Origin: a virus
DNA: 35,851 nt
UHGV virus genome: UHGV-0135983
Strand: one strand, 5' to 3'
The notes under the pieces are model-generated. The model had not been told where the DNA came from. It searched no databases and saw only the letters and a program-made list of their open reading frames with translations. Shown here piece after piece: positions 1-35,851 of the stretch. Position numbers and translations under genes: made by a program. Positions within the stretch are counted from its first letter, which is position 1. Every line of letters starts with the position of its first letter.

Positions 1-125
1 TCATTTAGCCGGCACGGCCGGTTCATCAAATCCGGGGATGGCGTTGGCCGCGTCGATTGCTCGTTGGCGCAACTGCACAGCATCACTATCAAACTTGCAC
101 ACAGTACGATTCGGGTCATTGACAT
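1..125 (-). CDS. o-spanin (Rz1-like lipoprotein), partial; 3' end runs off the window start
   Basis: ATG at 125..123 in an alternative frame inside Rz; reads MSMTRIVLCASLIVMLCSCANEQSTRPTPSPDLMNRPCRLN with signal peptide, Cys lipobox-like LCSC and Pro-rich segment; no stop before position 1. Confidence 0.5.
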   Translation of the reverse strand, partial: MSMTRIVLCASLIVMLCSCANEQSTRPTPSPDLMNRPCRLN

Positions 126-378
126 ATTTCACCACATCACGATAAACAGTACGGTAAATCACTTTGGCTTCAGCATTCGCCGTCGCCGCCTTCTGCTCGC
201 CTTCTGCTACCGCTTTTTCCTGTTTTGGCAGTCTGGCTTTAGCCTGGCTGTTCACTTGCTCAGAATGCGCGTACCAGCCTTTCAGATACCCCGCCCAGAA
301 AATACCAGCGGCCACCGCCAGCACTCCCCCAACGATCATCATTTTGGTTTTGCCGTTCACTCGTACAGCCCCCAGCAC
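1..378 (-). CDS. i-spanin (Rz-like)
   Basis: 125 aa, N-terminal TM segment (MMIVGGVLAVAAGIFWAGYL) then charged helical region; last gene of lysis cassette; GTG start with AGGAAAG upstream, ATG alternatives at 342/339. Confidence 0.7.
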   Translation of the reverse strand: MLGAVRVNGKTKMMIVGGVLAVAAGIFWAGYLKGWYAHSEQVNSQAKARLPKQEKAVAEGEQKAATANAEAKVIYRTVYRDVVKYVNDPNRTVCKFDSDAVQLRQRAIDAANAIPGFDEPAVPAK

Positions 379-893
379 GTTAGCGCACTTTCCTGCTCCC
401 GGCGGTCAACCTGCCCGTAACAGCCGTTTTTCTGTCCTTTGGTCAGTCGGCAATCCCGTCCACCATCGAAAACCCAGCGCCGGATCTCCGCGCACGCCCC
501 TTTGCGGTCGCCGGCATTGAGTTTGCGGTAGAACGTCGAGGGGAAGCATTTACCCGGACCGATGTTGTAGGGGCAGAAGCTGGCGATCCCGACCTTCTGC
601 GGCGGCGTCAGCGGAACGTGCACATTCTTTTCAACCCATGCCAGCGCCTTATCGCGCTCGATGGCGTTAACTTTCTTGCACTGAGCCTCGGTTGCTCTTT
701 GACCCTTAATGACACGCTTGCCATCTATAACGGTTACTCCGTGGCACAACGACCACACACCGCCGGGGTCAACAACGGCCACCAGCGCGTTACCTTCTTT
801 TTCGCTGATAAACTGATCGAACAGCACCGGCGCAGATGCACCGGCGGCCAGAAGCGCCAACATTGCGGCGCTGAACTTAGCTTTGTTGCTCAT
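357..893 (-). CDS. SAR endolysin, T4-lysozyme-like (phage 21 R type)
   Basis: Start taken at internal Met ([23 protein letters not shown], signal-anchor-release-like); E-x8-D-x5-T catalytic spacing ([22 protein letters not shown]); GACAEIRRW motif resembles P21 R. Confidence 0.85.
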
Positions 894-1107
894 AGTCCTG
901 TGCCTTCCGCCGGTCGTCTTTAATTTTGAAATACAGATTAGTGAGGTAGGTAAGCAACCCGAAAACAATACTTGCCAGAACGCCTATAGCCGCCCACTGG
1001 CTGGGGCTTACCTTGTCGAGAAGTTGCAGCAGCCAGAAGCTGCCGCTTACTGTGGATGTGATGTACGACGTTCCCGCCGCCACATCCGGTAGATTCTTCA
1101 TTCGCAT
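877..1107 (-). CDS. pinholin (phage 21 S-like class II holin), dual-start MRM
   Basis: 76 aa; [40 protein letters not shown] closely resembles S21; two TM segments; Met1-Arg-Met3 suggests antiholin/holin pair. Confidence 0.85.
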
Positions 1108-1161
1108 GCCTTACCCCTCGGGGGTTCACTGTGTAGTGAAGCGAGGGTAAGGCGTTAACCA

Positions 1162-1178
1162 GGTCGGAATCCTGACTA
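1162..1178 (-). promoter_or_regulatory. conserved late-junction element copy 1 (GGTCGGAATCCTGACTA on + strand), upstream of holin
   Basis: Invariant 11-mer GGATTCCGACC on the coding (-) strand shared with three other sites; 55 nt upstream of holin ATG. Confidence 0.5.
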
Positions 1179-1183
1179 AATAT

Positions 1184-3304
1184 TTAAGCGTTGAAACCAC
1201 CGACTCGAACTTTTAGCGTAGAGAGGTCAACATTAGCAGTTATGTTTAATACACCACTCCCCGCTGAAATAGAGAATAAGCGCCGTCCGCCTGACGTTCC
1301 GCCCCCCGCCGGTGGAGTGGTATCGAGTTCACCTGTGATCGATATTGAAATGGTACCCTCACGGTTAGCAACGAGTAGCTCTAAACATTCAGCCCAGGTG
1401 AATTGTGCTGACGACCATGCGTCAATAAAAATACGCTGAGTAGTTCGGTTTGGAATTGTGATGGATTTCACTTCCCCTGTATTTACCAGCCCCTGAAAAC
1501 GGGTTCCGTAATCTATCCAGCTGATACTGTACCCTGGCGACCCCGTTGTGGGATTTTGAGATGTATACCAGGTCTGAGTCCGCACTCCTGTATGACTGAT
1601 TGACTGGAGAGGTCGAGCAAACTGATCGCGGTGGATGTATGCATTCGCCCGTATACCATTACTTTGCAGATCTATATCTGCTGTTCGGGGGTTAGGATAT
1701 AAACCAGATCCCCCCACATCAAACATCGCATAATGATTTGCTACGGCGGGTATCCAGCCATTTCTGTCGAGGTTCCTGAAAAAATCTTCAAAGGCAAGCC
1801 AGTACGATTGCTGATGCCCAAACAAATTGGGGTGAACAGTCTGTATTTCCGGCGTCCGATTGAATAATGCCGTTTCGCCATATTTAGCTACAGCATCAAA
1901 CCAGTATTTTTCAACATCAATCAGCACACAGCCCATTTCTACCGCGATTTGCCTGATGGCATCGTTTCCACGCAGGAAGCGAACACCTGCCTGTATGTTT
2001 ACACCATTCCATTCAAACGTGACGTTTGACTCTGCCGCTGAAGGGATAATGTCCTCATCGGAAACAGGAAGTGGAGAAAATGATGGCCACACCTGATTAA
2101 CAGACGGCGGCATGCTCCAGCTGTACTCAGCTATATTTGGATGCGGTGTGGTTGTCAAAACAACATCACCGCCAGCCTCCCTGACTAAATTAATCGCGGC
2201 TCTAAGACGCTGCTTAAATCCATTTTCATTGAACGTTTGCCCGGCATTATAGTTTGCCGTTGGGAAATCATTCATACCATAGACAAAGAGCGCGATATCA
2301 GGATATACACCTTCTGCGACGACGCCAGACCACTGATTTACAATGAAGTTATTTATCGACGAACCATTAGCCCCCCTGTTTTCGAAAGTAAGAGGATAAA
2401 TTCCTTGTTTGTTAAGAGTTTTATTTAAGTATTCGAAAAACTTAGCGATAGGGGCTTGCGTTGCAGGATCTGGAAGTGTTGCACCCACTTGCACTGAACT
2501 ACCGAAACCGTAAGCTCTGAACAAATCCTGATAGCCGGTAACGCCATGCCGATAAGCTGTTAATTTATTAATAAACTTTGGAAACAGAGCCTGTGATGAG
2601 CCAGACGCAGCACGAATAGATGCCTCTACCGTTCTTCCTGTTTCAGTAGCAACTAAGCCAGCACCGTCCTTCGAAGCCAGCTTAATAGCCAGATCTGCAG
2701 TTTGAGTCTGTCCGGCGATCGGTACCGGGTTTCCCTGGTCATTAAATCCCAGAAGCATATTTGAACGCGGAGCCACCGGATAAAGCATGCCTACCTGATT
2801 TTCAGGAACGCGTAACGTACGGGAAAAGTTTACCTGTTCAGTTTGGATAACGTATTTTTTTGTAGCGGCGTCCTGATTATCAACAGGGTCCAGTAAATTG
2901 CTAATTCTGTATCCCTGAGCATTAAACGGCCCACCGGACAGCGGGCGAGTTATTGCCAGTCCGAGTTCGAGGAATGCCCGTTGGATAGCCATCCAGATAC
3001 GGTCAAAGTCCTTATTAATAGTATCCGCCAGTAAGTCCCCGTTATCCTGATAATCCGTTAACCGGAACGTCGGAACAACACGCTGTAACATAACGACAGC
3101 GCCATTCGCCGGCGGCGTCAGAAAGGAGATATCACCACCATCTTTATTTCCAACCCCCGCGACGGAATACCCACTGGTAACAATATTTCCGTTTATGCTT
3201 ACCTGCAGATCGCTGGCACTAATGATATAGAACTGGTACGTAAAAACGGTTGTCAGGCCGTTAGCCGTATAGATGTTATAGGGTATCTGGTTCGGTACCG
3301 ACAT
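1184..3304 (-). CDS. tail fiber / tailspike with T7 gp17-like N-terminal domain and possible SGNH-hydrolase-like central domain
   Basis: Start chosen at MSVPNQIPYNIYTANGLTTVFTYQFYI (GGAG RBS; longer ORF to 3367 would overlap the upstream gene); N-terminus has the T7 fiber-type pattern; central GFGSS / YGMND / VHPN motifs resemble SGNH esterase blocks. Confidence 0.7.
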   Translation of the reverse strand: MSVPNQIPYNIYTANGLTTVFTYQFYIISASDLQVSINGNIVTSGYSVAGVGNKDGGDISFLTPPANGAVVMLQRVVPTFRLTDYQDNGDLLADTINKDFDRIWMAIQRAFLELGLAITRPLSGGPFNAQGYRISNLLDPVDNQDAATKKYVIQTEQVNFSRTLRVPENQVGMLYPVAPRSNMLLGFNDQGNPVPIAGQTQTADLAIKLASKDGAGLVATETGRTVEASIRAASGSSQALFPKFINKLTAYRHGVTGYQDLFRAYGFGSSVQVGATLPDPATQAPIAKFFEYLNKTLNKQGIYPLTFENRGANGSSINNFIVNQWSGVVAEGVYPDIALFVYGMNDFPTANYNAGQTFNENGFKQRLRAAINLVREAGGDVVLTTTPHPNIAEYSWSMPPSVNQVWPSFSPLPVSDEDIIPSAAESNVTFEWNGVNIQAGVRFLRGNDAIRQIAVEMGCVLIDVEKYWFDAVAKYGETALFNRTPEIQTVHPNLFGHQQSYWLAFEDFFRNLDRNGWIPAVANHYAMFDVGGSGLYPNPRTADIDLQSNGIRANAYIHRDQFARPLQSISHTGVRTQTWYTSQNPTTGSPGYSISWIDYGTRFQGLVNTGEVKSITIPNRTTQRIFIDAWSSAQFTWAECLELLVANREGTISISITGELDTTPPAGGGTSGGRRLFSISAGSGVLNITANVDLSTLKVRVGGFNA

Positions 3305-3321: not shown

Positions 3322-4932
3322 CTAATAATCTACGGCGACCATGTGATCGCCATCGTTTGGTTGCCAATGTTCCCGCGCCTGTGCGGTCGGAATCCCGACC
3401 AATTTACCTATACGTACCGGAGTTGAGCTGATAGCACCGGAGCCGGAGTCGATAAAGTCATCGGGCTGATTAGTCAGCGCCGGGTTAAAGTCTCGCATCT
3501 GGTCGTACATTGGGCCGTCGAGCACGTCGGTGTGCGCCCAAAGGAACCGCGACGACAGCGGCGCTTCGAAGGCATCGAGGATGCGTTTCTGTTTATTGGT
3601 CACGCTGAATTCTTCCCGGACGCCGCAACCTGTACCCTTCAACGCCTGAATCAGCAATTTGCCGGCGAAGCTGCCCGGGCCGTTCACCTCGACGCAAATC
3701 AGGGGGATCTGATACTTCAACACCAGCTCTTTAATCTGCATCACCTGACCGCCGGTGATTTTGTCGTTGTCGTCAAATTCTGCCAGTTCGCCCGTAAGCC
3801 CCTGGCAAACATGCCAGTACAGATGCCCGCGCGCGTCGGTGAAAATCAGAGAGAACGCCGAGGCGTCGGCCTTAACTTTGCCGGTGGCCACATCCCACCA
3901 GGCGACAGCACCAACAATTTGCGTCTGGCCAAGCCACATCGAACAGGAGCGGTTCGCGTATCGGATTTCAGGCTGAACGTTGTATTCTCGGATACGGTCA
4001 GGATCAAGACGAACCTCGCCAACCGGTTTACTGTGCAGCTGGTACTGACTGTCCCATTCGTTAATTGTGCGAGTCTCGCGGCGGCGCTTTGTCATTTCCT
4101 CCGGAGTGAATCTTTCCGGCCATTCACAATCGGCGTAACAGTCAACCGTGGTACCGGGAGCCTCGGCAAACTCGATACCATCATCGTTAAGACGATAATC
4201 AACACCTTCAACGAGCAGTCGCGCGCCAATGTGAATACCGACGAAAACATATTCAGGCCGGAACGGTAACGAGTAACGGCTAGCGGTAGCCTGTTTTTCC
4301 TCGATGCGAAATTCTTTGCCGAATAGTTTGATGGTCAGACAGTCGGCGCCCATAGATTCAACCTCATCGTAAAGGCTATCGTGGGTATGCGGCGTGCCGA
4401 TAAACAGCTTTCGCCCGCCGGGGACAAGAATGTGTGTCTGTTCACCCAGACGATAACGCAGCTTTTCCCGCGCCTCCGGCGTCTGGATATTCCGGGGCAC
4501 TTCTACGTCATCGTTCTGACATTCATCGGCACGGGCCGAGGTGACGTTAGAGAGGATCCCCTTTGCGTACATGCTGCCGTTACGCATATCCAGCGAGCCG
4601 TTAACCCACCATTGCTCAACGGTTCCCTGTCCGTCGGGTAGCATACCTTTGGTCAGCGGATGATTGCGTAAAACGTTCTGCGTATCGCGGCTGGTTTTGT
4701 ACGCGGTGCCGTCAGCTTCAGACTGGTGAAGAATGCGGTACTGGCGGTTCTGGTAATATCGCCATGCGTTATACACCGCCAGAATGGTGGATTTTCCGAA
4801 GCCACGGAAACAGCGAAGCACCGCGAGATCCCCGCGGTGTTCCAGCCAGTGGCAGGCTCGATAATGGCAGTCGGGAACCTCCCACCCCATCCGCTCCGCC
4901 CATATGATGAAAAAGGCGACGAATGAAATCAT
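3322..4932 (-). CDS. terminase large subunit (putative)
   Basis: 536 aa; Walker A-like RGFGKSTILA near N-terminus, acidic Walker B-like ADECQNDD; sits between a small putative TerS and the tail fiber. Confidence 0.6.
   Translation of the reverse strand: MISFVAFFIIWAERMGWEVPDCHYRACHWLEHRGDLAVLRCFRGFGKSTILAVYNAWRYYQNRQYRILHQSEADGTAYKTSRDTQNVLRNHPLTKGMLPDGQGTVEQWWVNGSLDMRNGSMYAKGILSNVTSARADECQNDDVEVPRNIQTPEAREKLRYRLGEQTHILVPGGRKLFIGTPHTHDSLYDEVESMGADCLTIKLFGKEFRIEEKQATASRYSLPFRPEYVFVGIHIGARLLVEGVDYRLNDDGIEFAEAPGTTVDCYADCEWPERFTPEEMTKRRRETRTINEWDSQYQLHSKPVGEVRLDPDRIREYNVQPEIRYANRSCSMWLGQTQIVGAVAWWDVATGKVKADASAFSLIFTDARGHLYWHVCQGLTGELAEFDDNDKITGGQVMQIKELVLKYQIPLICVEVNGPGSFAGKLLIQALKGTGCGVREEFSVTNKQKRILDAFEAPLSSRFLWAHTDVLDGPMYDQMRDFNPALTNQPDDFIDSGSGAISSTPVRIGKLVGIPTAQAREHWQPNDGDHMVAVDY
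3385..3402 (-). promoter_or_regulatory. conserved late-junction element copy 2 (GGTCGGAATCCCGACCAA), inside terminase 3' end, upstream of tail fiber
   Basis: Same invariant 11-mer; lies within the last ~27 codons of the upstream CDS, 84 nt before the fiber ATG at 3304. Confidence 0.5.
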
Positions 4933-5270: not shown

Positions 5271-5317
5271 AAAAAAGCCCCGTGGTTATCCATAGGGCTA
5301 TAATGTGCCGGGCTAGA

Positions 5318-5333
5318 GGTCGGAATCCTGACT
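5318..5333 (-). promoter_or_regulatory. conserved late-junction element copy 3 (GGTCGGAATCCTGACT), upstream of putative TerS
   Basis: Same invariant 11-mer, 45 nt upstream of the ATG at 5270. Confidence 0.5.
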
Positions 5334-5404: not shown

Positions 5405-5842
5405 GTGAAAACTTTATTCCCCTTAATACTGTTTATCGTAACTTCTACCGTTTGCGCCAAAGAAGTTAAATATGACTTTCCTCCAGATGGGGAAATGGCA
5501 AAATCACTCAAACCAGAAATTGTTGGCGTGGCTAATTATGAAATGGTCAATAGAAGCGTGCGCTTAAAAGCTTTAGATGTTGGTGAAAAAAATGTTTCTC
5601 TCCTGGTAGTCATAGGTGCTACCGACACCAGAAAACCCGTTACTCAAGCTAACATCCCTGACAAACAATCAATCTCATTAACTAAACAGCAAATTGTGAA
5701 CAAATATTGTGCACCATTCGGGTATGGCAATTGGTACTTTGATGCCTTCAAACAGCGGGGTGTAAAACTGCACTATTACTTTTACTCGGCAGTAGACACC
5801 CCGTTATTTACATTCACGGTAAATAAATCTGATTGCGATTAA
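5405..5842 (+). CDS. secreted hypothetical protein (moron, opposite strand to virion genes)
   Basis: GTG start with AGAGG RBS 7 nt upstream; N-terminal signal peptide VKTLFPLILFIVTSTVCA; AT-rich relative to flanks; TATAAT-like boxes at 5299..5304 and 5377..5382; stop overlaps the convergent internal virion gene stop. Confidence 0.5.
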   Translation: MKTLFPLILFIVTSTVCAKEVKYDFPPDGEMAKSLKPEIVGVANYEMVNRSVRLKALDVGEKNVSLLVVIGATDTRKPVTQANIPDKQSISLTKQQIVNKYCAPFGYGNWYFDAFKQRGVKLHYYFYSAVDTPLFTFTVNKSDCD

Positions 5843-11941: not shown

Positions 11942-11943
11942 CG

Positions 11944-20031: not shown

Positions 20032-20041
20032 AAAATTCTCC

Positions 20042-22261: not shown

Positions 22262-22295
22262 CAAAAGAAAACCGCCATTTCTGGCGGTTCTGTTT
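22262..22295 (-). terminator. intrinsic terminator (hairpin with T-runs on both strands)
   Basis: ACCGCCATTTCTGGCGGT hairpin; - strand followed by TTTTCTTTTG, + strand by TTCTGTTTTAT. Confidence 0.5.
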
Positions 22296-25217: not shown

Positions 25218-25886
25218 TTATGCCCTCTTGTTCTTCGCTGACTCGATGTAATAACGGGGATCAACGCTGTTAAGCGTGAAGTGAACCACCGGCATATCGT
25301 CGTGACGGGTGATACCCACGTAATTCGACATGAACATGCCGAACACGCGATCGTGAAGTTCTTTAATCGTCACCTGACAATCTGGATAGTGCTTCTGGAT
25401 TAATGCCAGGATGCCCTGGTAAGAAAGCGTTTTGCCTTTCATCACGGCTACCAGCTGCTGCGCGGTGACGCTCCCGGCGTCCTGCTGTTCGTCGCTGGCC
25501 TGCAATGGGCGGATACTCTCCAGCACCAGACGGTGACGGCCAATACTGCCGACGCGCTGGCCCGTTTTTTTATCGAAATGCTCATTGGAGCCAGCAGACC
25601 AGACGGTCGCACCTTCGCTAAGGCGAACGCTTTTTTCACCTCTGGAATAAATCACGGTGCCGATGTGGGTTTTACGCCTGCGGCCGGAAACCGTAGGGGC
25701 GATAATTTCACGCTTAATCGGTTTTTGCGGGGTGATGCCGGGTACAGGGGCCGGACGTGGCGCCGCTACGAACACGGAACGGCTACGGGCGCGCGCGCCG
25801 GCGTTCATGCGCCAGAGAATAACGGGGAGCCAGTTGCAGCCATCATCCGGTTTTACTGGTTTTGGGTAATTTAAATTCGTGGTCAT
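25218..25886 (-). CDS. hypothetical protein (early region)
   Basis: 222 aa; start codon directly preceded by CCGAGGAAAGACCA. Confidence 0.5.
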   Translation of the reverse strand: MTTNLNYPKPVKPDDGCNWLPVILWRMNAGARARSRSVFVAAPRPAPVPGITPQKPIKREIIAPTVSGRRRKTHIGTVIYSRGEKSVRLSEGATVWSAGSNEHFDKKTGQRVGSIGRHRLVLESIRPLQASDEQQDAGSVTAQQLVAVMKGKTLSYQGILALIQKHYPDCQVTIKELHDRVFGMFMSNYVGITRHDDMPVVHFTLNSVDPRYYIESAKNKRA

Positions 25887-25924: not shown

Positions 25925-27331
25925 TTAAAATGCATCGGTATTGAATTTCTCAGAGTATTTACGGGGTTGTTTCCGGGGTTTCGCGGCCTCCAGTTGGATA
26001 CGTGTTTTCTCTTTGCCAACATGCTGATCCATTGACAGAAAGTGTCCGTTTTTAAATTCCTGATAAATAATTGCTCCTGCGGCGCTGAAGCGGCTTTTAC
26101 CCAGGATAATTTCAGCGACGCCAGCCGCCGGGCTTTCCGGGTTGTAAACCTCATCGCGGTACAGAAACATGATGCTGTCGGCGTCCTGCTCAATGGATCC
26201 GGAATCACGCAGGTCTGACATGACCGGGCGACGCTGAGCCGCAGGGCGGGAATCGACGGCGCGGGAAAGCTGGCTAAGCGCGAACGTCGGCGTATGCAGG
26301 CGCATAGCCATAGTTTTTAGGTTTCGGGATATGTGGGCGATCGCAAGGTCGTTACGCTCTGCCTTCGGTTTTTTAATCAGGCCAACGTAATCGACAACGA
26401 TCATCGCCAGATGCGGATACCGGCGCTTATGCGTTTCGGCAACGGCGCGGATTTGCTCAATCGTCAGATCGGTAGCATCAACGATCCAGATATCGCGCCC
26501 GTTCATGGTCTCCATGGCCGCTGTAAAGCGCGCCCAGTCCTCGTCCTGCATATCGAGGGGATTACGCAGGCGTGACACTGACATGTTTCCAGAACCCGCC
26601 AGAGAGCGTTCTACGATTTGCGCAGCGGCCATTTCCATGCTGAATATCAACGCGCCACCGCCGGCAGCGGTAACACCATCGACAATCTTCAGCGCAAATT
26701 CTGTTTTACCCATACCCGGACGCCCAGCGACGACAATCAAATCCTGCAGGTTAATTCCGCCGGTCGCATCGTCCAGTTCCTCGATCCCGGTTTTCAGGTT
26801 TCGGGTGCCCTCTTCGCCGTCCATGCGCTTCTGCATGGTTTCCATGTACACCGGCAATAATTCGCTCATGTGTACCGGCTGCACGTCGCCAGTGTCGCCG
26901 GTCATGTCCAGCAGCTGCGCAACGGCAGTTTCGACAACCTGATCGCGCTGTTCCTGGTTTATCGCATCACGAATACCATCCGCACCATCCTGCAGTAATT
27001 GCGCGATGGTTCTGCTTCGCCAGGCCTTAACCATTTTTTTGGCGTAGCCTTTGAGATTGACAATCGATGTCGGGAATTTGCAAATATCGGCGAGATTGGC
27101 CAGCGTCCCCTGTCCGCCAATGGCTTCGCTAATGTACATCATGTCAATTAAGCCGCCGCTCAAGGCCTGCGCTTTGATCACACCGTAAATCTGCCTGTAG
27201 TATGCGACGCTGAAAGCTTCGCTCGGAGTGCTGGCAATCACATCAAAGGCGTCTGGCGTGGCGCCACCGTTCATCAGGCAGCCAAGAACCAGACATTCCA
27301 GCTCCTGAGTGGAATACATCATCTGCATCAT
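25925..27331 (-). CDS. replicative DNA helicase (DnaB family)
   Basis: 468 aa; Walker A GRPGMGKTEFALK; DnaB-like C-terminal blocks; overlaps initiator stop. Confidence 0.85.
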   Translation of the reverse strand: MMQMMYSTQELECLVLGCLMNGGATPDAFDVIASTPSEAFSVAYYRQIYGVIKAQALSGGLIDMMYISEAIGGQGTLANLADICKFPTSIVNLKGYAKKMVKAWRSRTIAQLLQDGADGIRDAINQEQRDQVVETAVAQLLDMTGDTGDVQPVHMSELLPVYMETMQKRMDGEEGTRNLKTGIEELDDATGGINLQDLIVVAGRPGMGKTEFALKIVDGVTAAGGGALIFSMEMAAAQIVERSLAGSGNMSVSRLRNPLDMQDEDWARFTAAMETMNGRDIWIVDATDLTIEQIRAVAETHKRRYPHLAMIVVDYVGLIKKPKAERNDLAIAHISRNLKTMAMRLHTPTFALSQLSRAVDSRPAAQRRPVMSDLRDSGSIEQDADSIMFLYRDEVYNPESPAAGVAEIILGKSRFSAAGAIIYQEFKNGHFLSMDQHVGKEKTRIQLEAAKPRKQPRKYSEKFNTDAF

Positions 27332-28317
27332 AAAGCGCCCTCCCTGGTCTTACGCAATGTCTCTGGTTTCATCAGATAGTCAAAGCTGGCGCGCCATCCG
27401 CCATTTTCACCAAAGTAAAAATCGGAGGCGTCAGCGCGGAATTTTTCGAAATAGCCCAGAAATGCGCCCGTGGTTTTGTTTTTCATATGGGCGGCCAGAC
27501 GGGTGATCATCCGGCGGCGGTCTGTGTCCAGTTCAGCAGCAGGCAGAACGTCAGCAAAAATTTCGTTGTAGCCGTTCATAACGGCTTCCGGATCAATATC
27601 GGTTTCGGTCACCGCCCATGCTTCAGCGTCAGCGAGATAACCATCAAAGCGGTTTACCCGGCAGATGTTCGCTGGCTTCGGCAGGCTATCGCCACGGCGG
27701 CGCCATGTGGCCAGCACCCAGCGGATAACTAACTGCAATTCGTCCAGGGTGTACCCTTCCCGGGTGGTGGTCGGCGTCAGCATCATCACAAACGGTTTCA
27801 GGTCACGGCAGCGGGTACCGGTTTGCTCGTTGTAAAATTCCAGCGCTTTTTTAGCATCAGAATTAATTTTTTCATCGCCTTCCCCCGTCTGGGGGTTAGG
27901 GGGATCTTTAGGTTCTATGACTGGTTCAAAAGAGTGACTGGTTCTGGTGCCGCCACACGGCATAGGGGCTATGCTTTTTGGCGGCATACCTGTGCTTTCT
28001 GACGGCATAGGGGCTATGCTTTTTGGCGGCATAGGGTTATCAAGTTTCATACAGTACAAATTCGACGCGTTACCCTTCCCGTTTTTTACGCCCGGGCGAT
28101 TTTCTTTCACCAGCAGGCCCATGGAAATTAACGCATCGATATGGTCACGCACCGCGCTTTTGCTGCACTCGCAGTGATCCGCAATATGTTTGTAAGACGG
28201 CCAGCATTCGCCGTAATCATTGGCGTTATCAGCCAGTTTGATCAGCACCAGTTTTCGAATCGGGTTTCCGGTCTTGATTGCCATTGCTTTGGCCATAAGC
28301 GTCATACTCATAGTCAA
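27328..28317 (-). CDS. replication initiation protein (HTH N-terminus, lambda O-like role)
   Basis: 329 aa; N-terminal HTH-like region; internal peptide repeat PMPPKSIAPMP x2 coinciding with DNA iterons; conserved phage replication C-terminal region. Confidence 0.7.
   Translation of the reverse strand: MTMSMTLMAKAMAIKTGNPIRKLVLIKLADNANDYGECWPSYKHIADHCECSKSAVRDHIDALISMGLLVKENRPGVKNGKGNASNLYCMKLDNPMPPKSIAPMPSESTGMPPKSIAPMPCGGTRTSHSFEPVIEPKDPPNPQTGEGDEKINSDAKKALEFYNEQTGTRCRDLKPFVMMLTPTTTREGYTLDELQLVIRWVLATWRRRGDSLPKPANICRVNRFDGYLADAEAWAVTETDIDPEAVMNGYNEIFADVLPAAELDTDRRRMITRLAAHMKNKTTGAFLGYFEKFRADASDFYFGENGGWRASFDYLMKPETLRKTREGAL
27958..28037. repeat. iteron-like direct repeats inside the initiator gene (candidate ori)
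   Basis: CGGCATA core at 27958, 27982, 28003, 28027 (21-24 bp spacing); two ~31-bp units CGGCATAGGGGCTATGCTTTTTGGCGGCATA. Confidence 0.6.
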
Positions 28318-28535
28318 ATCCCCAGCGAGTCAGCCAACTGACGGCAGGCGATTTCGTATTCTTTCTGGGTGAGTCCCGCTTCCTGCAGGTCTGCCTTGCG
28401 CAGTTCATAGCGTTCCCAGATTGTCAGCGCAGTAGCGCGACGCTCTTCGAAAATCGATTCGATATCTTCCATCGGGACTTGTACCCCGTTCCGGCGAAAC
28501 CCATTCCGCCAGGTGATGCGGTCTTGTGTTCTCAT
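28314..28535 (-). CDS. hypothetical small protein
   Basis: 73 aa from MRTQDRITWRNGF; ATG directly preceded by CCGAGGAAAGACCA; the longer 162-aa ORF to 28802 would overlap the YdaT-like gene. Confidence 0.5.
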   Translation of the reverse strand: MRTQDRITWRNGFRRNGVQVPMEDIESIFEERRATALTIWERYELRKADLQEAGLTQKEYEIACRQLADSLGI

Positions 28536-28555: not shown

Positions 28556-29002
28556 TTAAACGCTGGTCAGGCGCTGTGTTTCTCGCATAGCTTGCAATGC
28601 TCTGGCGACTTGCTGCGGCCCGTCTCTGGCGTCGAGTAACAACGCGATAATCGCCGCTGCAAACTCGCGAATGGCCACACAAATTAAATACTGGGTGGAC
28701 ATACCCAAGCGCGCGTAACGTTCTGCCGGCAGCGCCGCTTCCATCGCTTTGACCAGCGCCAGAGTTTTGGCTCTCGCGGCTTTGGTCTCGCCTCGCAACC
28801 AACGAAAAATTTGTTGGCGGTTATTGTTGATTGCCCGCCAGTCGGCGTTTCCATCTGCATCTTCGATCTGGTGCAGCTTCAGCGAACCGGTATTACCACC
28901 AAGACGAAACCACATGCGGCTTATCTCGATAGCAACCAGCTCCTGCCCGCTTTCCGCTGCCCAGTTAAAGATCTCTCGTTTAAGTTCTTCGAGGTATTCC
29001 AC
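28556..29002 (-). CDS. YdaT-like protein (CII-position regulator of Rac-type switch)
   Basis: 148 aa; QQIFRWLRGETKAARAK and overall pattern resemble Rac YdaT as recalled; follows the Cro-like gene. Confidence 0.6.
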   Translation of the reverse strand: MEYLEELKREIFNWAAESGQELVAIEISRMWFRLGGNTGSLKLHQIEDADGNADWRAINNNRQQIFRWLRGETKAARAKTLALVKAMEAALPAERYARLGMSTQYLICVAIREFAAAIIALLLDARDGPQQVARALQAMRETQRLTSV

Positions 29003-29064
29003 TTCGAGCGTCTCCTGTCGCTGAAAATTGATTAAGCGTAATCAGATTTCGATAACGCCTGTAG

Positions 29065-29262
29065 TTATGCTTTAGACGTGTTTTGCTCTTCGTAAAAAGT
29101 AGGGTCGTATTTCAAGGCGCCTGCAGTTACATGCTCAAGTCGCGCAGCTCGCTTTTCAGGAACAACAGCACCCCAGCGGGTTACAGCGACTTGAGAGATA
29201 CCTAATGCACGCGCAACAGCGGTTTTAGTTCCAAAAAATCTGATAACAGTTTCGGTCTTCAT
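29065..29262 (-). CDS. Cro/YdaS-like HTH regulator
   Basis: 65 aa; HTH AVARALGISQVAVTRW; AGGAG RBS; divergent from repressor gene. Confidence 0.7.
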   Translation of the reverse strand: MKTETVIRFFGTKTAVARALGISQVAVTRWGAVVPEKRAARLEHVTAGALKYDPTFYEEQNTSKA

Positions 29263-29330
29263 AGTTTCCTCTCCTAACGTCAGTTAGGAACATAAATACT
29301 AACGAAAGTTATGTCAAGTTAACTTATATT
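29263..29330. promoter_or_regulatory. immunity switch region: operator palindromes and divergent promoters
   Basis: Palindromes TAACGTCAGTTA (29276..29287), TAACGAAAGTTA (29300..29311), AAGTTAACTT (29316..29325); - strand TTGACA (29312..29317) 17 nt from TATGTT (29289..29294); + strand TATATT (29325..29330) just before the repressor start. Confidence 0.6.
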
Positions 29331-29780: not shown

Positions 29781-29793
29781 ACACCTCAAATAT

Positions 29794-29844
29794 TAACTTT
29801 TGTTAGTAAAAAATATTGCCAATAAAAATACCTTTGGTTATGCT
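29794..29844 (+). promoter_or_regulatory. operator-like palindrome plus sigma70-like promoter
   Basis: TAACTTTTGTTA (29794..29805) matches the TAAC-N4-GTTA pattern; TTGCCA (29816..29821), 17-nt spacer, TATGCT (29839..29844). Confidence 0.45.
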
Positions 29845-30426: not shown

Positions 30427-30769
30427 GGGAAAGACCGCAACGAACATCCATTGCTGTGTGTAGTCTTGGCCGGGCGCCCCGGGCATTTTTTTAACACAGT
30501 AACGATTTATGCGACCCTTCAGTGAAAACTGAAGCCCTCGAAAAGAGGGACCCCGTGAGGAAAGACCAGTGAGCCTGACCAGCTCTGGCGCCGGGAAAGA
30601 CCGGGAGGAAAGACCAATGACCTACGGGCATGACCAGCCCTGACAGCCGGGAAAGACCGGCAACCTTTAGATGGCAAAAGGCCCGCACAAGGCGGGCCAG
30701 TTACCCCGAACGGTGACCAAACCATTCGGACTTATCACAAGCGACCAAGCTTGTGATGAGGAAAGACCA
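30427..30769 (+). repeat. cluster of six GGAAAGACC motifs in apparently non-coding DNA
   Basis: GAGGAAAGACCA at 30557, 30605, 30758 (each followed by GTG/ATG and a short in-frame ORF); GGGAAAGACC at 30427, 30593, 30649; 22-bp inverted repeat TCACAAGC-N6-GCTTGTGA at 30735..30756. Confidence 0.6.
30463..30490 (+). terminator. putative intrinsic terminator
   Basis: GC-rich hairpin CCGGGCGCCCCGGG followed by T7 run. Confidence 0.5.
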
Positions 30770-30824
30770 ATGCCGACAGAGTCAACACTGATCGGCTCTG
30801 AGTATACATCAACAAGGAGTCGCT

Positions 30825-31401: not shown

Positions 31402-31430
31402 CCTGCGCCAGTAACTAAGAGGAAAGACCA

Positions 31431-33650
31431 ATGACCATCTACAACGGCTTATTTGAGCCAAAGAAATCGGCGATTAAAGACTGCGGCGCCGTGCAGCTGG
31501 CGATCGCCATCGATGCGCCAAACAAAAAAGTGGCCGAAAGCATTATGACCGGCAAACTCTGGGAATCATACCCGGCCAATGGTGACAACTATTTCAAACC
31601 GAAACTGTGGGAACACGTTGAAGGCCAGCCGCTGCCGACCGTTGGCCAGTTCGATGAGTCATTCGCCCAGCAGCATACTTTTGACGGTGAAAAATGGGTT
31701 TCTACTGCGCAGGATAGCGCTTCCGGAAGCAGTGCAGGTTTACCTGCCGACGATGAAGTGATCGACCTGATGACCGTTTCCGCAGAGGAACGCTTTGCTG
31801 CCGTCCTGCTTTTTAGCACCGCTGCGATTGATGGCCATCTTTATTCTCAGGTTGTGGATTATCTGGATAACCTGAAAAACCACGATGGCGAATTTGAAGA
31901 GGAAGATCGCTTTAACTTTAATGTGCTGTGCGCCCTACAAAATAACTTCCCGGTTCAAAGCATGCATGTGGAAGGTCTGAATAACCTTGTTCAGGGGATT
32001 TTCTCCCACTTTGAAAACCAGACGCCAGGCAAAGCGGCTATCTCTCAGTTCGTTAAACGCTGGCTTGAGAATCCGGGCAAGCGCGACGAACTGGCCCCCG
32101 GCGTATATAAAAATACCGCTCTCAGCACCAGCACCAGCACCAGCACCGATGATAAAACACCCGTGGTAATTTCTAAGCGGGGTTATAAACACACATATGC
32201 AACGCTGGATCAGGAGATCGCTACCGCCCTTCTCCCGCTGGCGCCTGATGCGCCGGTACTATCCGGAAACCTTCTGGACGCTAAGAAGATGATTGCCGAT
32301 GACCGGGAAGATTTTAAACGCTGGTCTGCATCGCTGCACACCACTCCGCAGATACTCAAATATGACCGCGCCAGCATCTTCGGTGTAGTGCAGAACGTAC
32401 CGGCGAAAGATACCTACCATTTCCCTGACAGCCTGCGCCGCCATATCGATTCATGGCTGGAGGCCAACGGCCGCTTTGAAGAAACCGATACAGGATCCGT
32501 TAAACAGACAGAGGCAACGCAAAATATCGCCTCAAACGTGGGCGAAAAAGCGGAAGTGCCGCAGACGGTTGTAACCGATAACCAAGCGAAACAGGCGCGT
32601 GAGGCGCTCAACGATATGGGCTATGGCGTATATGCATCTGGTGAAGGTGCGGAACCGGAAGATAAGTTAAGCGTTAAGGCTGAGAAAATAGCAGATGAAG
32701 CTGCTCGTTTGTCTCGTGATATTAACCTCAAAGATCGCATGCCAGATGCCGGAGATTTGATTCCAGCAATTCAACCAAATGAAAATATAGCCTCAAAAAA
32801 AATTGAATCATATCTATCTGAATTGAATGACGACCAGGCCAAAGCAAACCTTAGCGTCTGGAATCGCGTCCAGCGCACAGATCCGGCCTTCGTCGAAAAG
32901 AACAGTTTCGGCGCAGGGCTTCACTCAATCCGGGCGCAGTACATGCTGATGCGCGCAACGGAAGTTCTCGGAATGGAAGGAACCGGTTGGGGCGTTGATA
33001 TCAAAGAAGAGCGCATAGATCGAGGTGTGCCGCTTATGGAGCCAATACAGGACCAATCAGGAAAAATAATTGGCCAGAAACCGGTAAGGGACGGGGATGG
33101 CTCATTATTCTGTTTATCCGTACATACAATTCGGATTGAACTCTGGTACCTGCGAGACGGAAAGAAGGGGCGCATTCCGGCCTATGGACATACGGATTAC
33201 ATCACCAAGGGTGGTGATGGTGCATTAAAAATGGAGAAAGAAGCCGCCAAAAAATCACTGACTGACGCTACAACCAAAGCACTATCCCATCTCGGATTTG
33301 GTGCAGACGTGTACATGAACATGCATAACGACAACGAATACACTTCAAAATTGAATGAGATATTCGAAATCAAAAAAGCCAGCGAAAGCATAGAAGATAT
33401 AGTGCGACTTCGTCAGGAATTAGACGACGATCTTACCTCCGTTGCTGAAACCCTATCTACTGGCGTGACTGTTAACGAAGTTGAAAAGGTTTTTGGCACG
33501 ATAGCCCGAAAACTCGAAGTTCACCGCAAGGATGCAGAATCAAAAGGCGATACACAGCGCTCTCGGTACCTCAGTGGCCGGTTGCGCCGCCTGACTGAAA
33601 TCAAAAATGGACGTCTCGCCGAACTAAATAAATCCGAGGAGAAAGCATAA
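31431..33650 (+). CDS. Erf-family single-strand annealing protein with ~480-aa N-terminal extension
   Basis: 739 aa; C-terminal region has Erf-like blocks NSFGAGLHSIRAQYM and KALSHLGFGADVY (cf. P22 Erf NSFGKYKYR / LNGLFGIDD); start preceded by GAGGAAAGACCA; (AGCACC)x4 encodes an STSTSTST linker. Confidence 0.6.
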   Translation: MTIYNGLFEPKKSAIKDCGAVQLAIAIDAPNKKVAESIMTGKLWESYPANGDNYFKPKLWEHVEGQPLPTVGQFDESFAQQHTFDGEKWVSTAQDSASGSSAGLPADDEVIDLMTVSAEERFAAVLLFSTAAIDGHLYSQVVDYLDNLKNHDGEFEEEDRFNFNVLCALQNNFPVQSMHVEGLNNLVQGIFSHFENQTPGKAAISQFVKRWLENPGKRDELAPGVYKNTALSTSTSTSTDDKTPVVISKRGYKHTYATLDQEIATALLPLAPDAPVLSGNLLDAKKMIADDREDFKRWSASLHTTPQILKYDRASIFGVVQNVPAKDTYHFPDSLRRHIDSWLEANGRFEETDTGSVKQTEATQNIASNVGEKAEVPQTVVTDNQAKQAREALNDMGYGVYASGEGAEPEDKLSVKAEKIADEAARLSRDINLKDRMPDAGDLIPAIQPNENIASKKIESYLSELNDDQAKANLSVWNRVQRTDPAFVEKNSFGAGLHSIRAQYMLMRATEVLGMEGTGWGVDIKEERIDRGVPLMEPIQDQSGKIIGQKPVRDGDGSLFCLSVHTIRIELWYLRDGKKGRIPAYGHTDYITKGGDGALKMEKEAAKKSLTDATTKALSHLGFGADVYMNMHNDNEYTSKLNEIFEIKKASESIEDIVRLRQELDDDLTSVAETLSTGVTVNEVEKVFGTIARKLEVHRKDAESKGDTQRSRYLSGRLRRLTEIKNGRLAELNKSEEKA

Positions 33651-34210
33651 TGACTTCCACTACTGCTATTGCCATCGCCGCGGACTATCAGAACCTGCTG
33701 CAACTGCTGGAAAGCTCTGATGACCTGACTCCGGAAATGATCGCCGATACCCTCGAAGGCATGGAAGGAGAGCTAGCCGATAAACTGGATTCCATCATGG
33801 TTATCGCACGTAATAACCTCGGCAATGCCAGCACCTGCGATGATGAAATAAAACGCTTGGCCGAACGTAAGAAGTTCTTTGAGAATAAGGATAAGGCTCT
33901 GCGTAAGTATATTCTCTCCTGCCTGATGGCGGCCGGGCTGGATAAGCTGAAAACGGCAAAAAACACTTTCACTGCTCGCAAAGGTAGCGTAAGCGTTGTG
34001 ATTGATAATACCGATCTTCTTCCCGATGAACTGGTGACTACCCAGGTTGTTATCGCGCCCGATAAAAAGGCCATCAAGGAAGCGATTGAATCAGCACAGG
34101 CAGCAGCGGCCCAGATTACCGCTGACGGCGGAGAGATACCGGAAGAACTGTTAAACCCAGTGCCGGGCGCTCACCTTGAGATTGGCGAACGTTCATTACA
34201 GGTGCGCTGA
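33650..34210 (+). CDS. Gam-like / Sipho_Gp157-like protein (putative host-nuclease inhibitor)
   Basis: 186 aa; helical N-terminus, central LKTAKNTFTARKGSVSVVID resembles Mu Gam-type pattern; start overlaps Erf-like stop. Confidence 0.45.
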   Translation: MTSTTAIAIAADYQNLLQLLESSDDLTPEMIADTLEGMEGELADKLDSIMVIARNNLGNASTCDDEIKRLAERKKFFENKDKALRKYILSCLMAAGLDKLKTAKNTFTARKGSVSVVIDNTDLLPDELVTTQVVIAPDKKAIKEAIESAQAAAAQITADGGEIPEELLNPVPGAHLEIGERSLQVR

Positions 34211-34211
34211 T

Positions 34212-34397
34212 ATGCTCAAAATCACCCTGAAGCGAGGGGATGCCATTCACGTTATTTTTCCTGATGGCACCAAAGGTAAGATCGAAGCCTGCGCACGTTG
34301 CGAGTTTGACTTTAATTTTCCCTATAGCGTGAAAATCACCAGAGAAAATGGCGCGCTACGGAATAAACCAAACCTGATTAAGCCTAATCAGAAATAA
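34212..34397 (+). CDS. hypothetical small protein
   Basis: 61 aa from MLKITLKRGD. Confidence 0.4.
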   Translation: MLKITLKRGDAIHVIFPDGTKGKIEACARCEFDFNFPYSVKITRENGALRNKPNLIKPNQK

Positions 34398-34446
34398 AAA
34401 CCAACCATCGCTAGCATAGCTGCCCCTTTTGAAAACGGAGAACGCT

Positions 34447-34641
34447 ATGCTGCGATGGCAACCGGGAGCTGTATTGCTCTCAGATTTCGATATCAAGATT
34501 GGCCGGTTATCCGCCAGCGTACGAAAGAAGACCCTGACCAGGACTGAAATCGAACGCGCATGCGAAGAAGCTGATAACGCGATCGCCGGCATGATGAGGA
34601 AAGACCATGGTCAGAAAAAACGACCTTCTCACCGACGCTGA
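34447..34641 (+). CDS. hypothetical small basic protein
   Basis: 64 aa from MLRWQPGAV; ACGGAG RBS; overlaps next gene start. Confidence 0.3.
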   Translation: MLRWQPGAVLLSDFDIKIGRLSASVRKKTLTRTEIERACEEADNAIAGMMRKDHGQKKRPSHRR

Positions 34642-34831
34642 GATGATTGAATTTACAGGTTGTAAACAACCAATCAAACAAAAAGAGGTTCTAGATCGTG
34701 GAGGTGTCTCATACATACAGGATAGAGAGGGGCGCCCTATGGTTACCTGGACGCATATTAATGCAGTTCTGAATGGACAAATAACCATCCAATTAGGCAG
34801 CGAAGAAAAACCAAATTTTGAGGCGATATAG
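34607..34831 (+). CDS. DUF4224-like small protein immediately upstream of integrase (putative excisionase)
   Basis: 74 aa; LLTDAEMIEFTGCKQPIKQKEVLDRGG pattern; start preceded by GAGGAAAGACC. Confidence 0.5.
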   Translation: MVRKNDLLTDAEMIEFTGCKQPIKQKEVLDRGGVSYIQDREGRPMVTWTHINAVLNGQITIQLGSEEKPNFEAI

Positions 34832-35851
34832 ATGGGAAGGAGAAGAAAAGATCCAACAGATAATAAATTGCCACCTCGTGTTTCAAAAACCAAAACTCGG
34901 TATTACTACAAACCCACAGCACGAGAAACTATAACGCTAGGGCCAATAACTCTTTCAATGTCTGCATTGTGGAAACGTTATGAGGAAGAAAGACGAAATC
35001 ACTCAGGAGTAATGACGTTTGAAAAGCTCTGGGGAATGTTTTTAAAGAGCGCCTATTACACCGAACTCGCAATTCGTACCCAAAAAGATTATTTGCAACA
35101 TCAAAAAAAATTATTAGTCGTTTTTGGAAAAATGAAAGCTGATCTTATCAAGCCCGAAGAAGTTCGCCAGTTTATGGATCGACGTGGCCTAAAAAGCAAA
35201 AATCAGGCTAATCAGGAAATGAGTAGTATGTCGAGGGTGTTTCGATGGGGTTTTGAACGTGGTTATGTAAAAGGCAACCCATGTGCCGGGGTTAGTAAGT
35301 TTTCGTTAAAGGCACGTGAACAATATATTACCGATGAAGATTATCTGGTTATCTATAAAAATGCTGATTCAGTTGTGCGGGCTGCAATGGAAATATCATA
35401 CCTGTGTGCTGCCCGCCAGGCTGACGTGTTGGGATTGTGCTGGATGCAGATAACAGACAAAGGGATATTCATTCAACAGGGTAAGACGGGGAAAAAGCAG
35501 ATCAAGGTCTGGACCCCTCGCCTTCATCAAGCCTTCGTTACGGCACAAATAGATTGCCCCAAACTGTCTGCTAACGGACTAGTGATCTACAACAACGATA
35601 AAGGCCAGTTTATCCGTAAGACGTTCAATAATCGCTGGCTTAAAGCCGTACGCGCAGCACAAAACGAATTGGGGCGACAACTGGACTATACATTTCACGA
35701 TATCAAAGCGAAGGGGATTTCAGATTTCGAGGGTAGCAGTAAGGACAAGCAGATGTTCAGTGGCCACAAGACGGAAAGTCAGGTTCTGGTGTATGACAGA
35801 AAGGTACAAATAAGCCCTACTTTGAATCTACCCGTAATTGGCGGTGATTGA
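34832..35851 (+). CDS. int: tyrosine integrase (lambda Int family)
   Basis: 339 aa; N-terminal arm-binding-like region, C-terminal catalytic region with conserved R...H-x-x-R...Y arrangement; stop is the final codon of the window. Confidence 0.9.
   Translation: MGRRRKDPTDNKLPPRVSKTKTRYYYKPTARETITLGPITLSMSALWKRYEEERRNHSGVMTFEKLWGMFLKSAYYTELAIRTQKDYLQHQKKLLVVFGKMKADLIKPEEVRQFMDRRGLKSKNQANQEMSSMSRVFRWGFERGYVKGNPCAGVSKFSLKAREQYITDEDYLVIYKNADSVVRAAMEISYLCAARQADVLGLCWMQITDKGIFIQQGKTGKKQIKVWTPRLHQAFVTAQIDCPKLSANGLVIYNNDKGQFIRKTFNNRWLKAVRAAQNELGRQLDYTFHDIKAKGISDFEGSSKDKQMFSGHKTESQVLVYDRKVQISPTLNLPVIGGD

Follow-up and report, generated by a model that had tools for sequence, protein, structure and literature searches.

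The window described here is the whole 35,851-nt stretch of UHGV virus genome UHGV-0135983. It is packed with genes end to end and is a complete, apparently intact and probably inducible prophage, that is, a temperate podophage at a tRNA-Ser gene of a Klebsiella- or Raoultella-like host. With moderate confidence we read it as an element of two modules that would be induced through an SOS-controlled antirepressor, and in which a helix-turn-helix (HTH) protein of 98 amino acids would switch on six late promoters together with host RNA polymerase. The initial annotation of this sequence had described an integrase, a CI/Cro/YdaT switch and O/DnaB replication genes joined to virion genes, and had proposed that late expression depends on host polymerase with the HTH protein and a repeated 11-mer as candidate factors. 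Every named part was found by Pfam and PHROG searches, and comparison among relatives suggests that the HTH protein and the repeated motif form a late-transcription pair. The predicted absence of T7-type RNA and DNA polymerases was also borne out, with zero matches to either in Pfam or PHROGs among all ORFs (open reading frames) in the window. The five ORFs of at least 600 amino acids were each assigned to a function other than polymerase.

Six putative late promoters share a dyad upstream of a weak -10 element

Genes from cro (29262) down to the Rz-like spanin lie on the minus strand, and those from the CI-like repressor through the integrase on the plus strand. A sigma-70 consensus scan ahead of the late genes returned no promoter, and promoter-like sites there were not above shuffled expectation. 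The 11-mer GGATTCCGACC has four exact minus-strand copies, at 1162, 3385, 5318 and 16069, ahead of the holin, fibre, terS and capsid genes, respectively. Three distinct 11-mers had at least four copies on one strand, compared to a mean of 0.01 in 200 Markov simulations. When up to two mismatches were allowed the 11-mer was not enriched (16 matches, 9 expected), and only the exact or extended motif is informative. Alignment of the sites revealed a 16-bp near-palindrome, GGTCGGGA|TTCCGACC, with the consensus RGTCRGGAWWCCGAMC. The 11-mer can stand as a candidate late-promoter element, but it is only the core of a larger promoter, and the window holds six copies rather than four.

All six copies are on the late strand, and each is followed by an unconserved 12-nt spacer and then a hexamer of the form nAnnnT, in which A2 and T6 are invariant (Table 1). 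In this layout the dyad would span roughly -40 to -25 of a weak -10 promoter. No -35 hexamer or TGn extended -10 could be placed at any of the six sites, which a sigma-70 scan passes over. The sequence features that mark an activator-dependent late-promoter regulon were present, namely a repeated element that is strand-specific, stands at a fixed distance from a -10 without a -35, and lies ahead of late operons. P1 falls within the 3'-terminal part of the HTH ORF; 30 nt separate it from the ATG at 20482, and its dyad lies 63 nt ahead of the next gene. The weaker capsid-proximal copy, P2b, is kept in related prophage loci L001, L002, L005-L009 and L022, and P4 has an equivalent position in Yersinia phage YeP4 and E. 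coli prophage B379.

Window-type sites were found at equivalent positions in L001, YeP4 (five), B379 (five) and prophages of Raoultella, Pluralibacter, Serratia and Symbiopectobacterium. A second form, AGTCGGGAAACCGACA-N12-GATnCT, occurs in prophages of Pseudomonas, Burkholderia, Accumulibacter, Methyloversatilis and Pseudoduganella. Over all loci, the A2/T6 pair stood at the fixed offset in 61 of the 148 loose dyad matches on the late strand and in 3 of 124 on the other strand, and the same strand test in IMG/VR contigs gave 66 versus 6. In relatives the capsid site comes directly after an intrinsic terminator, whereas in the window a moron of 39% GC separates it from the terminator at 17071-17098.

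The roughly 29 kb of genes on one strand, from cro to Rz, might alternatively be served by one long antiterminated PR transcript in the manner of lambda N/Q, with the dyads acting as operators that delay or damp late expression, or as RNA hairpins or processing sites. The HTH family goes by the name "repressor" in PHROG, and the dyad could form a hairpin with a 6-bp stem, which symmetric changes would also keep, and a GAAA or GAUU loop. In addition, a 112-amino-acid "transcriptional regulator" (phrog_536) is encoded just before the terminator at 22268-22291; a PDB sequence search with this protein found nothing. We consider this explanation rather unlikely. No Q or N family match was found in Pfam, and strong terminators at 22268-22291, 17071-17098 and 14973-14992 break up the strand. 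Strand specificity of the hexamer at its fixed 12-nt offset is something that neither an operator nor a hairpin would need, and the stem is broken at P3, at P5 and in YeP4 (AGTCAGGAAACCGAAC), where the sites are conserved nonetheless. The capsid dyad directly after a terminator in relatives is the order expected of a terminator followed by a promoter, and most relatives with the dyads lack the gene for the 112-amino-acid protein.

A multi-copy, strand-specific and phage-specific motif also looks like the promoter set of a phage RNA polymerase, and a non-canonical one could be hidden in a large unassigned protein, as N4 vRNAP is embedded in an IVP-D homologue (Hardies et al., PMC4819975). This is highly improbable. 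The proteins of 964 and 904 amino acids match internal-virion families over their full length and have no extra polymerase-sized domain. Sigma-70 is indicated by the hexamer, whose A2 and T6 do not vary and whose spacing is that of a host -10; dyad symmetry and symmetric variants suit a small dimer. Sigma-54, sigma-28 and ECF-type readings of the motif were examined by eye and rejected; the spacing did not fit, the centre varies between AA and TT, and the symmetric half-site variants fit a dimer. The dyad as an RNA hairpin was likewise rejected on the broken stem at the conserved P3 and P5.

Weak -10 promoters without a -35, in which a protein-binding element ends 10-12 bp upstream of the -10, are known from the T4 MotA box, the PhoB pho box, Mu C/Mor and the controller (C) proteins of restriction-modification systems. 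A small phage-encoded DNA-binding protein is the likely partner here as well, and the predicted fold of the HTH protein in the window is C-protein-like. MotA, Mor/C and PhoB differ in having no sequence relation to this protein, and in the window a single 16-bp dyad is centred near -32.5, with binding and activation predicted. Searches of the literature with the motif sequences gave nothing relevant, and no description of late promoters was found for Xfas53, BcepC6B or BPP-1.

A hairpin followed by U6 (about 5273-5300) ends just before the terS ATG and abuts or overlaps the -10/+1 region of P3 (5273-5306, minus strand). The only Shine-Dalgarno-like bases there are in its 3' arm, and a homologous hairpin is present in Alcaligenes phage Piluca. 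Such a hairpin may stop transcripts arriving from upstream, while P3 transcripts may start inside it and escape.

The 98-amino-acid HTH protein is the most likely late activator

The HTH protein is modelled as a Cro/CI-type domain, with CapH-N, P22 c2 and restriction-modification controller C proteins as its nearest folds in Foldseek. P22 c2 and the controller proteins act at or beside -35 regions. A PDB search with the HTH profile gave nothing significant. YeP4-6, Piluca, Acinetobacter phages and BcepC6B (gp01) each encode a homologue immediately before the virion module, and the gene is found 0.7-3 kb upstream of the portal gene in about 22 of 29 loci. Among the early and middle (non-structural) genes of the window, it is the only one that all of these have in common.

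Changes in the dyad are accompanied by changes in the recognition helix. In L027 the dyad is altered symmetrically in both halves (AGGCGAGA|TTTCGCC, then N12 and CACAAT or GACCAT), and the helix reads RSTLKSW compared to KSAVLGW in the window. L013 has ATCGG half-sites and a helix 3 that begins with Gln instead of Lys/Arg. The Piluca/Acinetobacter lineage has a divergent recognition helix and another repeated motif, ACACCCAACAAA, at the equivalent positions. Furthermore, the P1 dyad itself encodes the last residues of the HTH protein, a C-terminal FGRETD tail (20513-20560) that is missing from homologues with an intergenic promoter. Since the tail exists only where P1 overlaps the ORF, it is promoter DNA read as protein.

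On these sequence comparisons, activation of the late promoters by the HTH protein with host sigma-70 polymerase is most likely. The protein would eventually be made from PR transcription, from the LexA-controlled unit described below, or from both. A dimer would then bind the dyad and recruit the host enzyme to a weak -10 that has no -35. The promoters would serve five units: the first late unit, capsid with the tail and internal proteins, terS-terL, fibre, and lysis. With terminators after the scaffold and capsid genes, the layout would mimic the class III promoters and T-phi of T7, with an activator and host polymerase in place of the phage polymerase.

Several points weigh against this model. 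The Foldseek E-values are weak (0.03 or worse), about 7 of the 29 loci have no HTH match by tblastn, the covariation comes from few lineages, and the PHROG label of the family is "transcriptional repressor". A dimer centred near -32.5 would be in an unusual position for an activator. In the switches of restriction-modification C proteins, the site that overlaps the -35 is the repressing one. With regard to the sites themselves, the left half-site is degenerate at P3 and P5 (AGTCAG), and P2b is just 15 nt from the capsid ATG. The LexA-controlled ORF falls in a PHROG family without an assigned function (phrog_340), and the order of events is uncertain because no terminator stands between that ORF and the HTH gene.

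A conserved 19-mer marks the HTH gene

Just upstream of the HTH gene is the 19-mer CTCGCGCACGCGCGCGTTT, a (CG)-rich sequence conserved far beyond the surrounding coding sequence. It was found at the same place in nearly all related loci (L001-L031, L158). Exact copies occur in at least 120 IMG/VR contigs, and in 115 of 120 a gene of the HTH family overlaps it or starts within 32 nt. It is kept beside HTH genes whose proteins are just 35-50% identical, and variants keep the alternation of pyrimidine and purine. In the Acinetobacter/Piluca type it lies inside a longer HTH ORF. A coding constraint was rejected as the explanation; the 19-mer is read in different frames among lineages, and the constraint therefore acts on DNA or RNA. 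The 19-mer does not vary with the HTH recognition helix, which speaks against it as the binding site of the HTH protein itself. It could be a pac site or a control element for expression of the activator.

The pac possibility raises the question of whether the HTH protein could be a TerS-like accessory for packaging or DNA recognition that takes the neighbouring 19-mer as its pac site, with a host factor or another phage protein serving the late promoters. Pac sites are often in or near terS genes, and the 19-mer is tightly linked to the HTH gene. The HTH protein also has a sub-threshold match to small-terminase family PF10668 (17.7 bits, cut-off 22), and its BcepC6B homologue, gp01, lies directly before terS-terL at the start of the deposited linear record. 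This role for the protein is nevertheless unlikely, as the 19-mer is identical across strongly differing recognition helices (KSAVLGW and GGSTVSSW) while the late-promoter motif changes with the helix. Moreover, a separate terS-like gene abuts terL, and the predicted HTH fold is that of a Cro/CI-type regulator.

If the HTH protein is the late activator, the arrangement may extend well beyond the window. We give about an even chance to the view that a large family of temperate epsilon15/BPP-1-type podophages in Enterobacterales, Pseudomonas, Burkholderiales and Acinetobacter shares a late-transcription cassette of a 19-mer-marked XRE activator gene, five to six promoters in which a lineage-specific site replaces the -35, and terminators placed as in T7. 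Such a cassette would replace the T7 RNA polymerase/class III system using host polymerase, with the 19-mer as a second, separate cis element (for example, a pac site or activator switch). The late-promoter/activator cassette and the 19-mer appear to be undescribed in the literature that could be searched. The model is testable and addresses late-gene timing in "T7-like" temperate phages that lack an RNA polymerase, with one small regulator and six mapped promoter candidates that are conserved in many genera. If true, late-operon boundaries could be annotated in hundreds of prophages now called hypothetical, and the pair would be a compact orthogonal activator and promoter with natural specificity variants.

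A LexA box and an antirepressor candidate

A near-consensus LexA box, TACTGTGAATTTATACAGTA (TACTGT-N8-ACAGTA), lies just past the early terminator, and CTGT-N8-ACAG is present at the equivalent place in four other prophages (five in total, from different genera). Behind it are an ORF of 63 amino acids, the genes for a DUF1367 protein and a Ref-type RecA-dependent nuclease, and the HTH gene, with no strong terminator between the ORF and these genes. The CI-like repressor contains only an HTH_3 domain, and no S24 self-cleavage domain was detected in it with Pfam. A LexA box at a small gene combined with a repressor that lacks this domain suggests SOS induction through an antirepressor. Phage 186 (Tum) and the Gifsy phages are induced by the SOS response in this way. 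From its position and the conserved LexA box, the 63-amino-acid ORF is a candidate for this antirepressor. DNA damage would cause LexA to leave the box, and the antirepressor then produced would inactivate a CI-like repressor that is itself unable to self-cleave. If true, this would explain SOS inducibility in prophages whose repressors cannot self-cleave.

Boundaries and intactness

The native flanks were read from the scaffold to which two window proteins were traced. Past Rz are host aldolase and phosphotransferase system (PTS) genes, and past the integrase is tRNA-Ser(tga) followed by host genes. A direct repeat (att) stands on both sides of the element; it is about 100 bp long and contains the 3' part of tRNA-Ser. 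The initial annotation had allowed for a T7-like RNA polymerase just outside the window, or for a defective element. There is no such polymerase, because host genes and att repeats flank both sides of the native contig, and nothing suggests a defective element, because all expected genes have their full length and the regulatory sites show no damage. In E. coli, a colinear prophage of 89.5% identity has yecA and tRNA-Leu as its boundaries. An Rfam scan of the window gave no match, and no tRNAs were found inside it.

The regulatory reading would be moot if the element were a defective or cryptic prophage that had lost the ability to form particles. In favour of this, the late region has taken up two morons (16110-16994 and about 5405-5842), and the related E. 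coli copy L001 has an IS110-family insertion in the middle region. Such decay seems quite improbable for the window, where no frameshifts were found and att repeats remain on both sides, where near-identical proteins occur on many contigs, and given that homologous virion modules are inducible in Yersinia. In L001 (E. coli 23GD11002), the nearest relative from E. coli, the IS110-family insertion (ISEc20) and a DUF2971 gene at 35685-36881 replace the methylase/regulator region; the LexA box is also lost, and this copy may be impaired.

Relatives and module exchange

No sequenced phage is near the window in DNA sequence: over its first 25 kb, every phage in the GenBank collection matched about 5% or less. 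Among characterized phages, the Yersinia phages YeP4, YeP5 and YeP6 (MK733262-4) have amino acid identities to the window of 84% for capsid, 76% for nozzle and 80% for portal. They were induced from lysogens and seen to be podoviruses by electron microscopy (PMC6548840). They share with the window a temperate life (induction and microscopy are theirs, the window being known from sequence), a colinear virion module with an HTH homologue (51%) just upstream of it, and five dyad-N12-hexamer copies positioned as in the window. Their P1 is intergenic, in contrast to P1 inside the HTH ORF here, and in place of CI/Cro/YdaT and O/DnaB they have a BPP-1/BcepC6B/Xfas53-like early module that encodes a DNA polymerase, primase and helicase of its own.

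Piluca (MZ326864) and related Acinetobacter prophages also resemble the window. They are about 35 kb and have CI/Cro, a tyrosine integrase, replication genes of DnaA/DnaB-like type, and tail and internal proteins that are epsilon15/T7-like. The 19-mer accompanies their HTH homologue, and a repeated motif precedes their late units. Piluca differs in its capsid (47% identical), a late motif (ACACCCAACAAA) without the window dyad, an N-terminal extension on the HTH protein, an S24-type repressor, and the absence of YdaT. The window is more distantly related to Acinetobacter phages, to HTVC010P-type pelagiphages, to Liberibacter and Ralstonia phages, and to phiV10/TL-2011b of the epsilon15 group. 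In tblastn with the nozzle, phiV10 and TL-2011b were 38% and the HTVC010P type 39% identical, and Liberibacter phages also matched. The 964-amino-acid internal protein has a DNA-level match to TL-2011b.

The description of the virion module as T7-like holds for gene order and several families. As in T7 and the Autographiviridae, the order is portal, scaffold, capsid, gp11, gp12, gp13-16 and then fibre/terminase, with a PF12236 portal, a T7-type fibre N-terminal domain and a T7-type terminase nuclease domain; the T7-type portal, tail tube, internal core and fibre are thus present in T7 order. The window also resembles T7 in having several candidate phage-specific promoters and, immediately behind the capsid gene, a terminator. 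In contrast to T7, the window is temperate and has no T7-type DNA polymerase or 23-bp class II/III promoters, no single-subunit RNA polymerase was found in its ORFs or native flanks, and its capsid is not detectably gp10-like by sequence.

By sequence, the module belongs instead to the epsilon15/BPP-1 tail-structure group, as judged by homology of the nozzle, the 964-amino-acid protein and PF25181. Hardies et al. (2016) placed epsilon15, BPP-1, BcepC6B, VP5 and SC1 in one "epsilon15 tail-structure homology group" and argued that a T7-like apparatus for ejection of internal proteins is ancestral to most podoviruses (PMC4819975). Members of the group are temperate and lack an RNA polymerase, and use of the host enzyme is the rule (PMC4819975). 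The module is therefore T7-like in order and several families but part of a temperate lineage without the polymerase. The window shares with epsilon15, BPP-1 and BcepC6B a Bbp19-family protein, GNAT, gp14/15/16-type internal proteins, a temperate life and the lack of RNA polymerase. It differs from them in its capsid family (PF19821), and from BcepC6B in that the terminase genes of the latter are at the front of the late region, whereas those of the window are at a T7-like distal position.

The modules are combined as the term "chimera" had implied, but the combination is an ordinary one already seen in YeP4, Piluca and E. coli prophages. Prophages of E. coli, Raoultella, Serratia and Symbiopectobacterium have YdaT, the O-like initiator or DnaB in common with the window. 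E. coli B379 has the same virion module (80% nucleotide identity) with a BPP-1/YeP4-type early region that includes DNA polymerase, VapE primase and a LexA-family repressor. The junction of the modules is just upstream of the HTH gene. The joining of a lambdoid early region to an epsilon15/BPP-1 virion is a case of module exchange, in an architecture known before. In enterobacteria, early regions of at least two kinds occur with the epsilon15/BPP-1-type virion module, which is transferred between them as a unit.

Immunity, replication and integration genes

A divergent CI/Cro switch with repeated operators is present as in lambdoid phages, with an HTH_3 repressor, a P22_Cro protein, three sites and a PR-like promoter. 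Operator matches (CTAAC-N4-GTTAG) numbered three, with 0.5 expected. An O-type initiator is paired with a partner of the P/DnaB/DnaC type. A Q-type late antiterminator acting on a single late promoter, a further lambdoid feature, was not found; there was no match to an antiterminator family from the replication genes to the virion genes.

The immunity region is of the Rac type, in which a short HTH repressor and a Cro/YdaS-like gene are divergent and YdaT follows the latter. The CI-Cro-YdaT modules of Rac and CP-933P have the same arrangement, with YdaT-box-like inverted repeats at the cro-ydaT junction and upstream of int (PMC9986795, also the source for YdaT function). The window module differs in belonging to an apparently complete phage rather than a cryptic remnant, and in its YdaS match, which is below threshold (28 bits, threshold 30); P22_Cro fits better (76 bits).

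The inverted repeat TGATTAAGCnTAATCAG occurs twice in near-identical form, at the cro-ydaT junction (29028-29045) and upstream of xis/int (34374-34391). Both resemble the published YdaT box, TTGATT-N6-AATCAA (PMC9986795). They are placed where PRE- and PI-like targets of a CII equivalent would be expected, and their number alone is without significance. By its position only, the DUF4224 protein would be Xis.

The early operon (22687-24290 and 24981-25214, minus strand) encodes two DNA adenine methyltransferases (D12 class and MT-A70) in addition to PD-(D/E)XK nuclease-like and DNA polymerase III theta/HOT-like proteins. An identical initiation string, GAGGAAAGACCAATG, consisting of a Shine-Dalgarno sequence, spacer and ATG, is found at five early genes on both strands and is absent from late genes. 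A shorter form, 12 nt long, occurs at 30557 and 34596, the latter copy preceding the DUF4224 ATG. The string moves several gene starts, for example that of a 73-amino-acid gene (28314-28535).

Virion, packaging and lysis genes

Table 1. Genes and sites of the window (UHGV-0135983), in order of position; aa, amino acids; a dot marks a site given without strand.
Feature	Position	Strand	Evidence and remarks
Lysis cassette (holin, lysozyme, Rz-like spanin)	1-1107	-	PF04971, PF00959
Rz-like spanin	1-378	-	
Class II holin	877-1107	-	
P5, lysis cassette	1145-1177	-	AGTCAGGATTCCGACC, N12, TACCCT
Tail fibre/spike	1184-3304	-	T7 N-terminal domain (PF03906, 43 bits); SGNH/GDSL esterase (PF13472)
Large terminase (terL), T7-type	3322-4932	-	PF22530 Terminase-T7_RNaseH-like, weak
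P4, fibre	3368-3400	-	GGTCGGGATTCCGACC, N12, GAACAT; inside 3' end of terL
terS-like protein, 113 aa	4929-5270	-	phrog_38
P3, terS-terL	5301-5333	-	AGTCAGGATTCCGACC, N12, CATTAT
Moron, secreted 145-aa protein	5405-5842	+	Opposite strand, between last internal-protein gene and terS
Internal protein, 964 aa	5839-8733	-	
SLT-bearing internal protein, 904 aa	8733-11447	-	
gp14-like protein (T7)	11453-11941	-	Weak match (PF24072)
GNAT	11944-12393	-	
Nozzle	12396-14384	-	PDB 8ck1
Adaptor	14386-14949	-	PDB 8ck1
Intrinsic terminator directly after capsid gene	14973-14992	-	8-bp stem, 7 GC pairs, T run
Major capsid protein, 303 aa	15009-15920	-	PF19821, E 3e-68
P2b, capsid-proximal	15936-15968	-	GGCCGGGAAACCGATA, N12, TACTTT; weaker copy
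P2a, capsid	16052-16084	-	GGTCGGGATTCCGACC, N12, AACAAT
Moron, 294-aa membrane/coiled-coil protein	16110-16994	-	39% GC; between post-scaffold terminator and capsid promoter
Intrinsic terminator after scaffold gene	17071-17098	-	
First late unit	17116-20482	-	146-aa and 73-aa proteins, portal, Bbp19-like, scaffold
Scaffold	17116-17964	-	
Bbp19-like protein	17951-18184	-	PF25181
Portal	18184-19806	-	PF12236, E 3e-120; T7 portal PDB 6r21, E 1e-8
HTH protein, 98 aa, XRE/Cro-CI type	20510-20806	-	phrog_16553; model pLDDT 75.6
P1, first late unit	20513-20545	-	Dyad GGTCGGGAAACTGACC (20530-20545), N12, CACAAT (20513-20518)
19-mer	20820-20838	-	Alternating pyrimidine-purine tract, then TTT
Ref-type RecA-dependent nuclease	20962-21264	-	PF16786
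DUF1367 protein	21276-21872	-	PF07105
ORF behind LexA box, 63 aa	21941-22132	-	phrog_340
LexA box	22153-22172	-	Sequence
Strong bidirectional intrinsic terminator, end of rightward early operon	22268-22291	.	10-bp stem and T run
GAGGAAAGACCAATG copies	25872-25886, 28521-28535	-	
GAGGAAAGACCAATG copies	30605-30619, 30758-30772, 31419-31433	+	
DnaB-type helicase	25925-27331	-	PF03796 (DnaB_C), PF00772 (DnaB)
O-like initiator	27328-28317	-	PF13730, phrog_428, "O-like" PHROGs
YdaT, CII-equivalent	28556-29002	-	PF06254, 76 bits (cut-off 21)
Cro	29065-29262	-	P22_Cro PF14549, 76 bits
Two CTAACnnnnGTTAG operators, cI-cro gap	29274-29312	.	25 bp apart; sequence search
PR, sigma-70-like	29289-29317	-	TTGACA-17-TATGTT; overlapped by operators
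CI-like repressor, 137 aa	29331-29744	+	HTH_3 only (Pfam)
Third operator	29793-29806		Beside PL-like promoter
Exonuclease-family protein, 739 aa (leftward early)	31431-33650	+	phrog_2489 full length, E 4e-284
Gp157-family protein (leftward early)	33650-34210	+	PF05565
DUF4224 protein	34607-34831	+	PF13986; directly upstream of int, excisionase position
Tyrosine integrase	34832-35851	+	PF00589; tRNA-Ser(tga) and att repeat next on native contig

In the PDB sequence search, the portal, adaptor and nozzle were closer to entries 8ck0/8ck1 than the portal was to T7 6r21, and the capsid matched nothing. The fibre counterpart in L001 is named "sialate O-acetylesterase" by PGAP. The 294-amino-acid moron is absent from L001 and YeP4 and may be a lysogenic-conversion or exclusion gene. 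The esterase fibre and the two morons are candidates for host-range or lysogenic-conversion functions in Klebsiella/Raoultella-like hosts. The slot of the opposite-strand moron (about 5405-5842) is occupied by other genes in relatives L035, L036 and L037.

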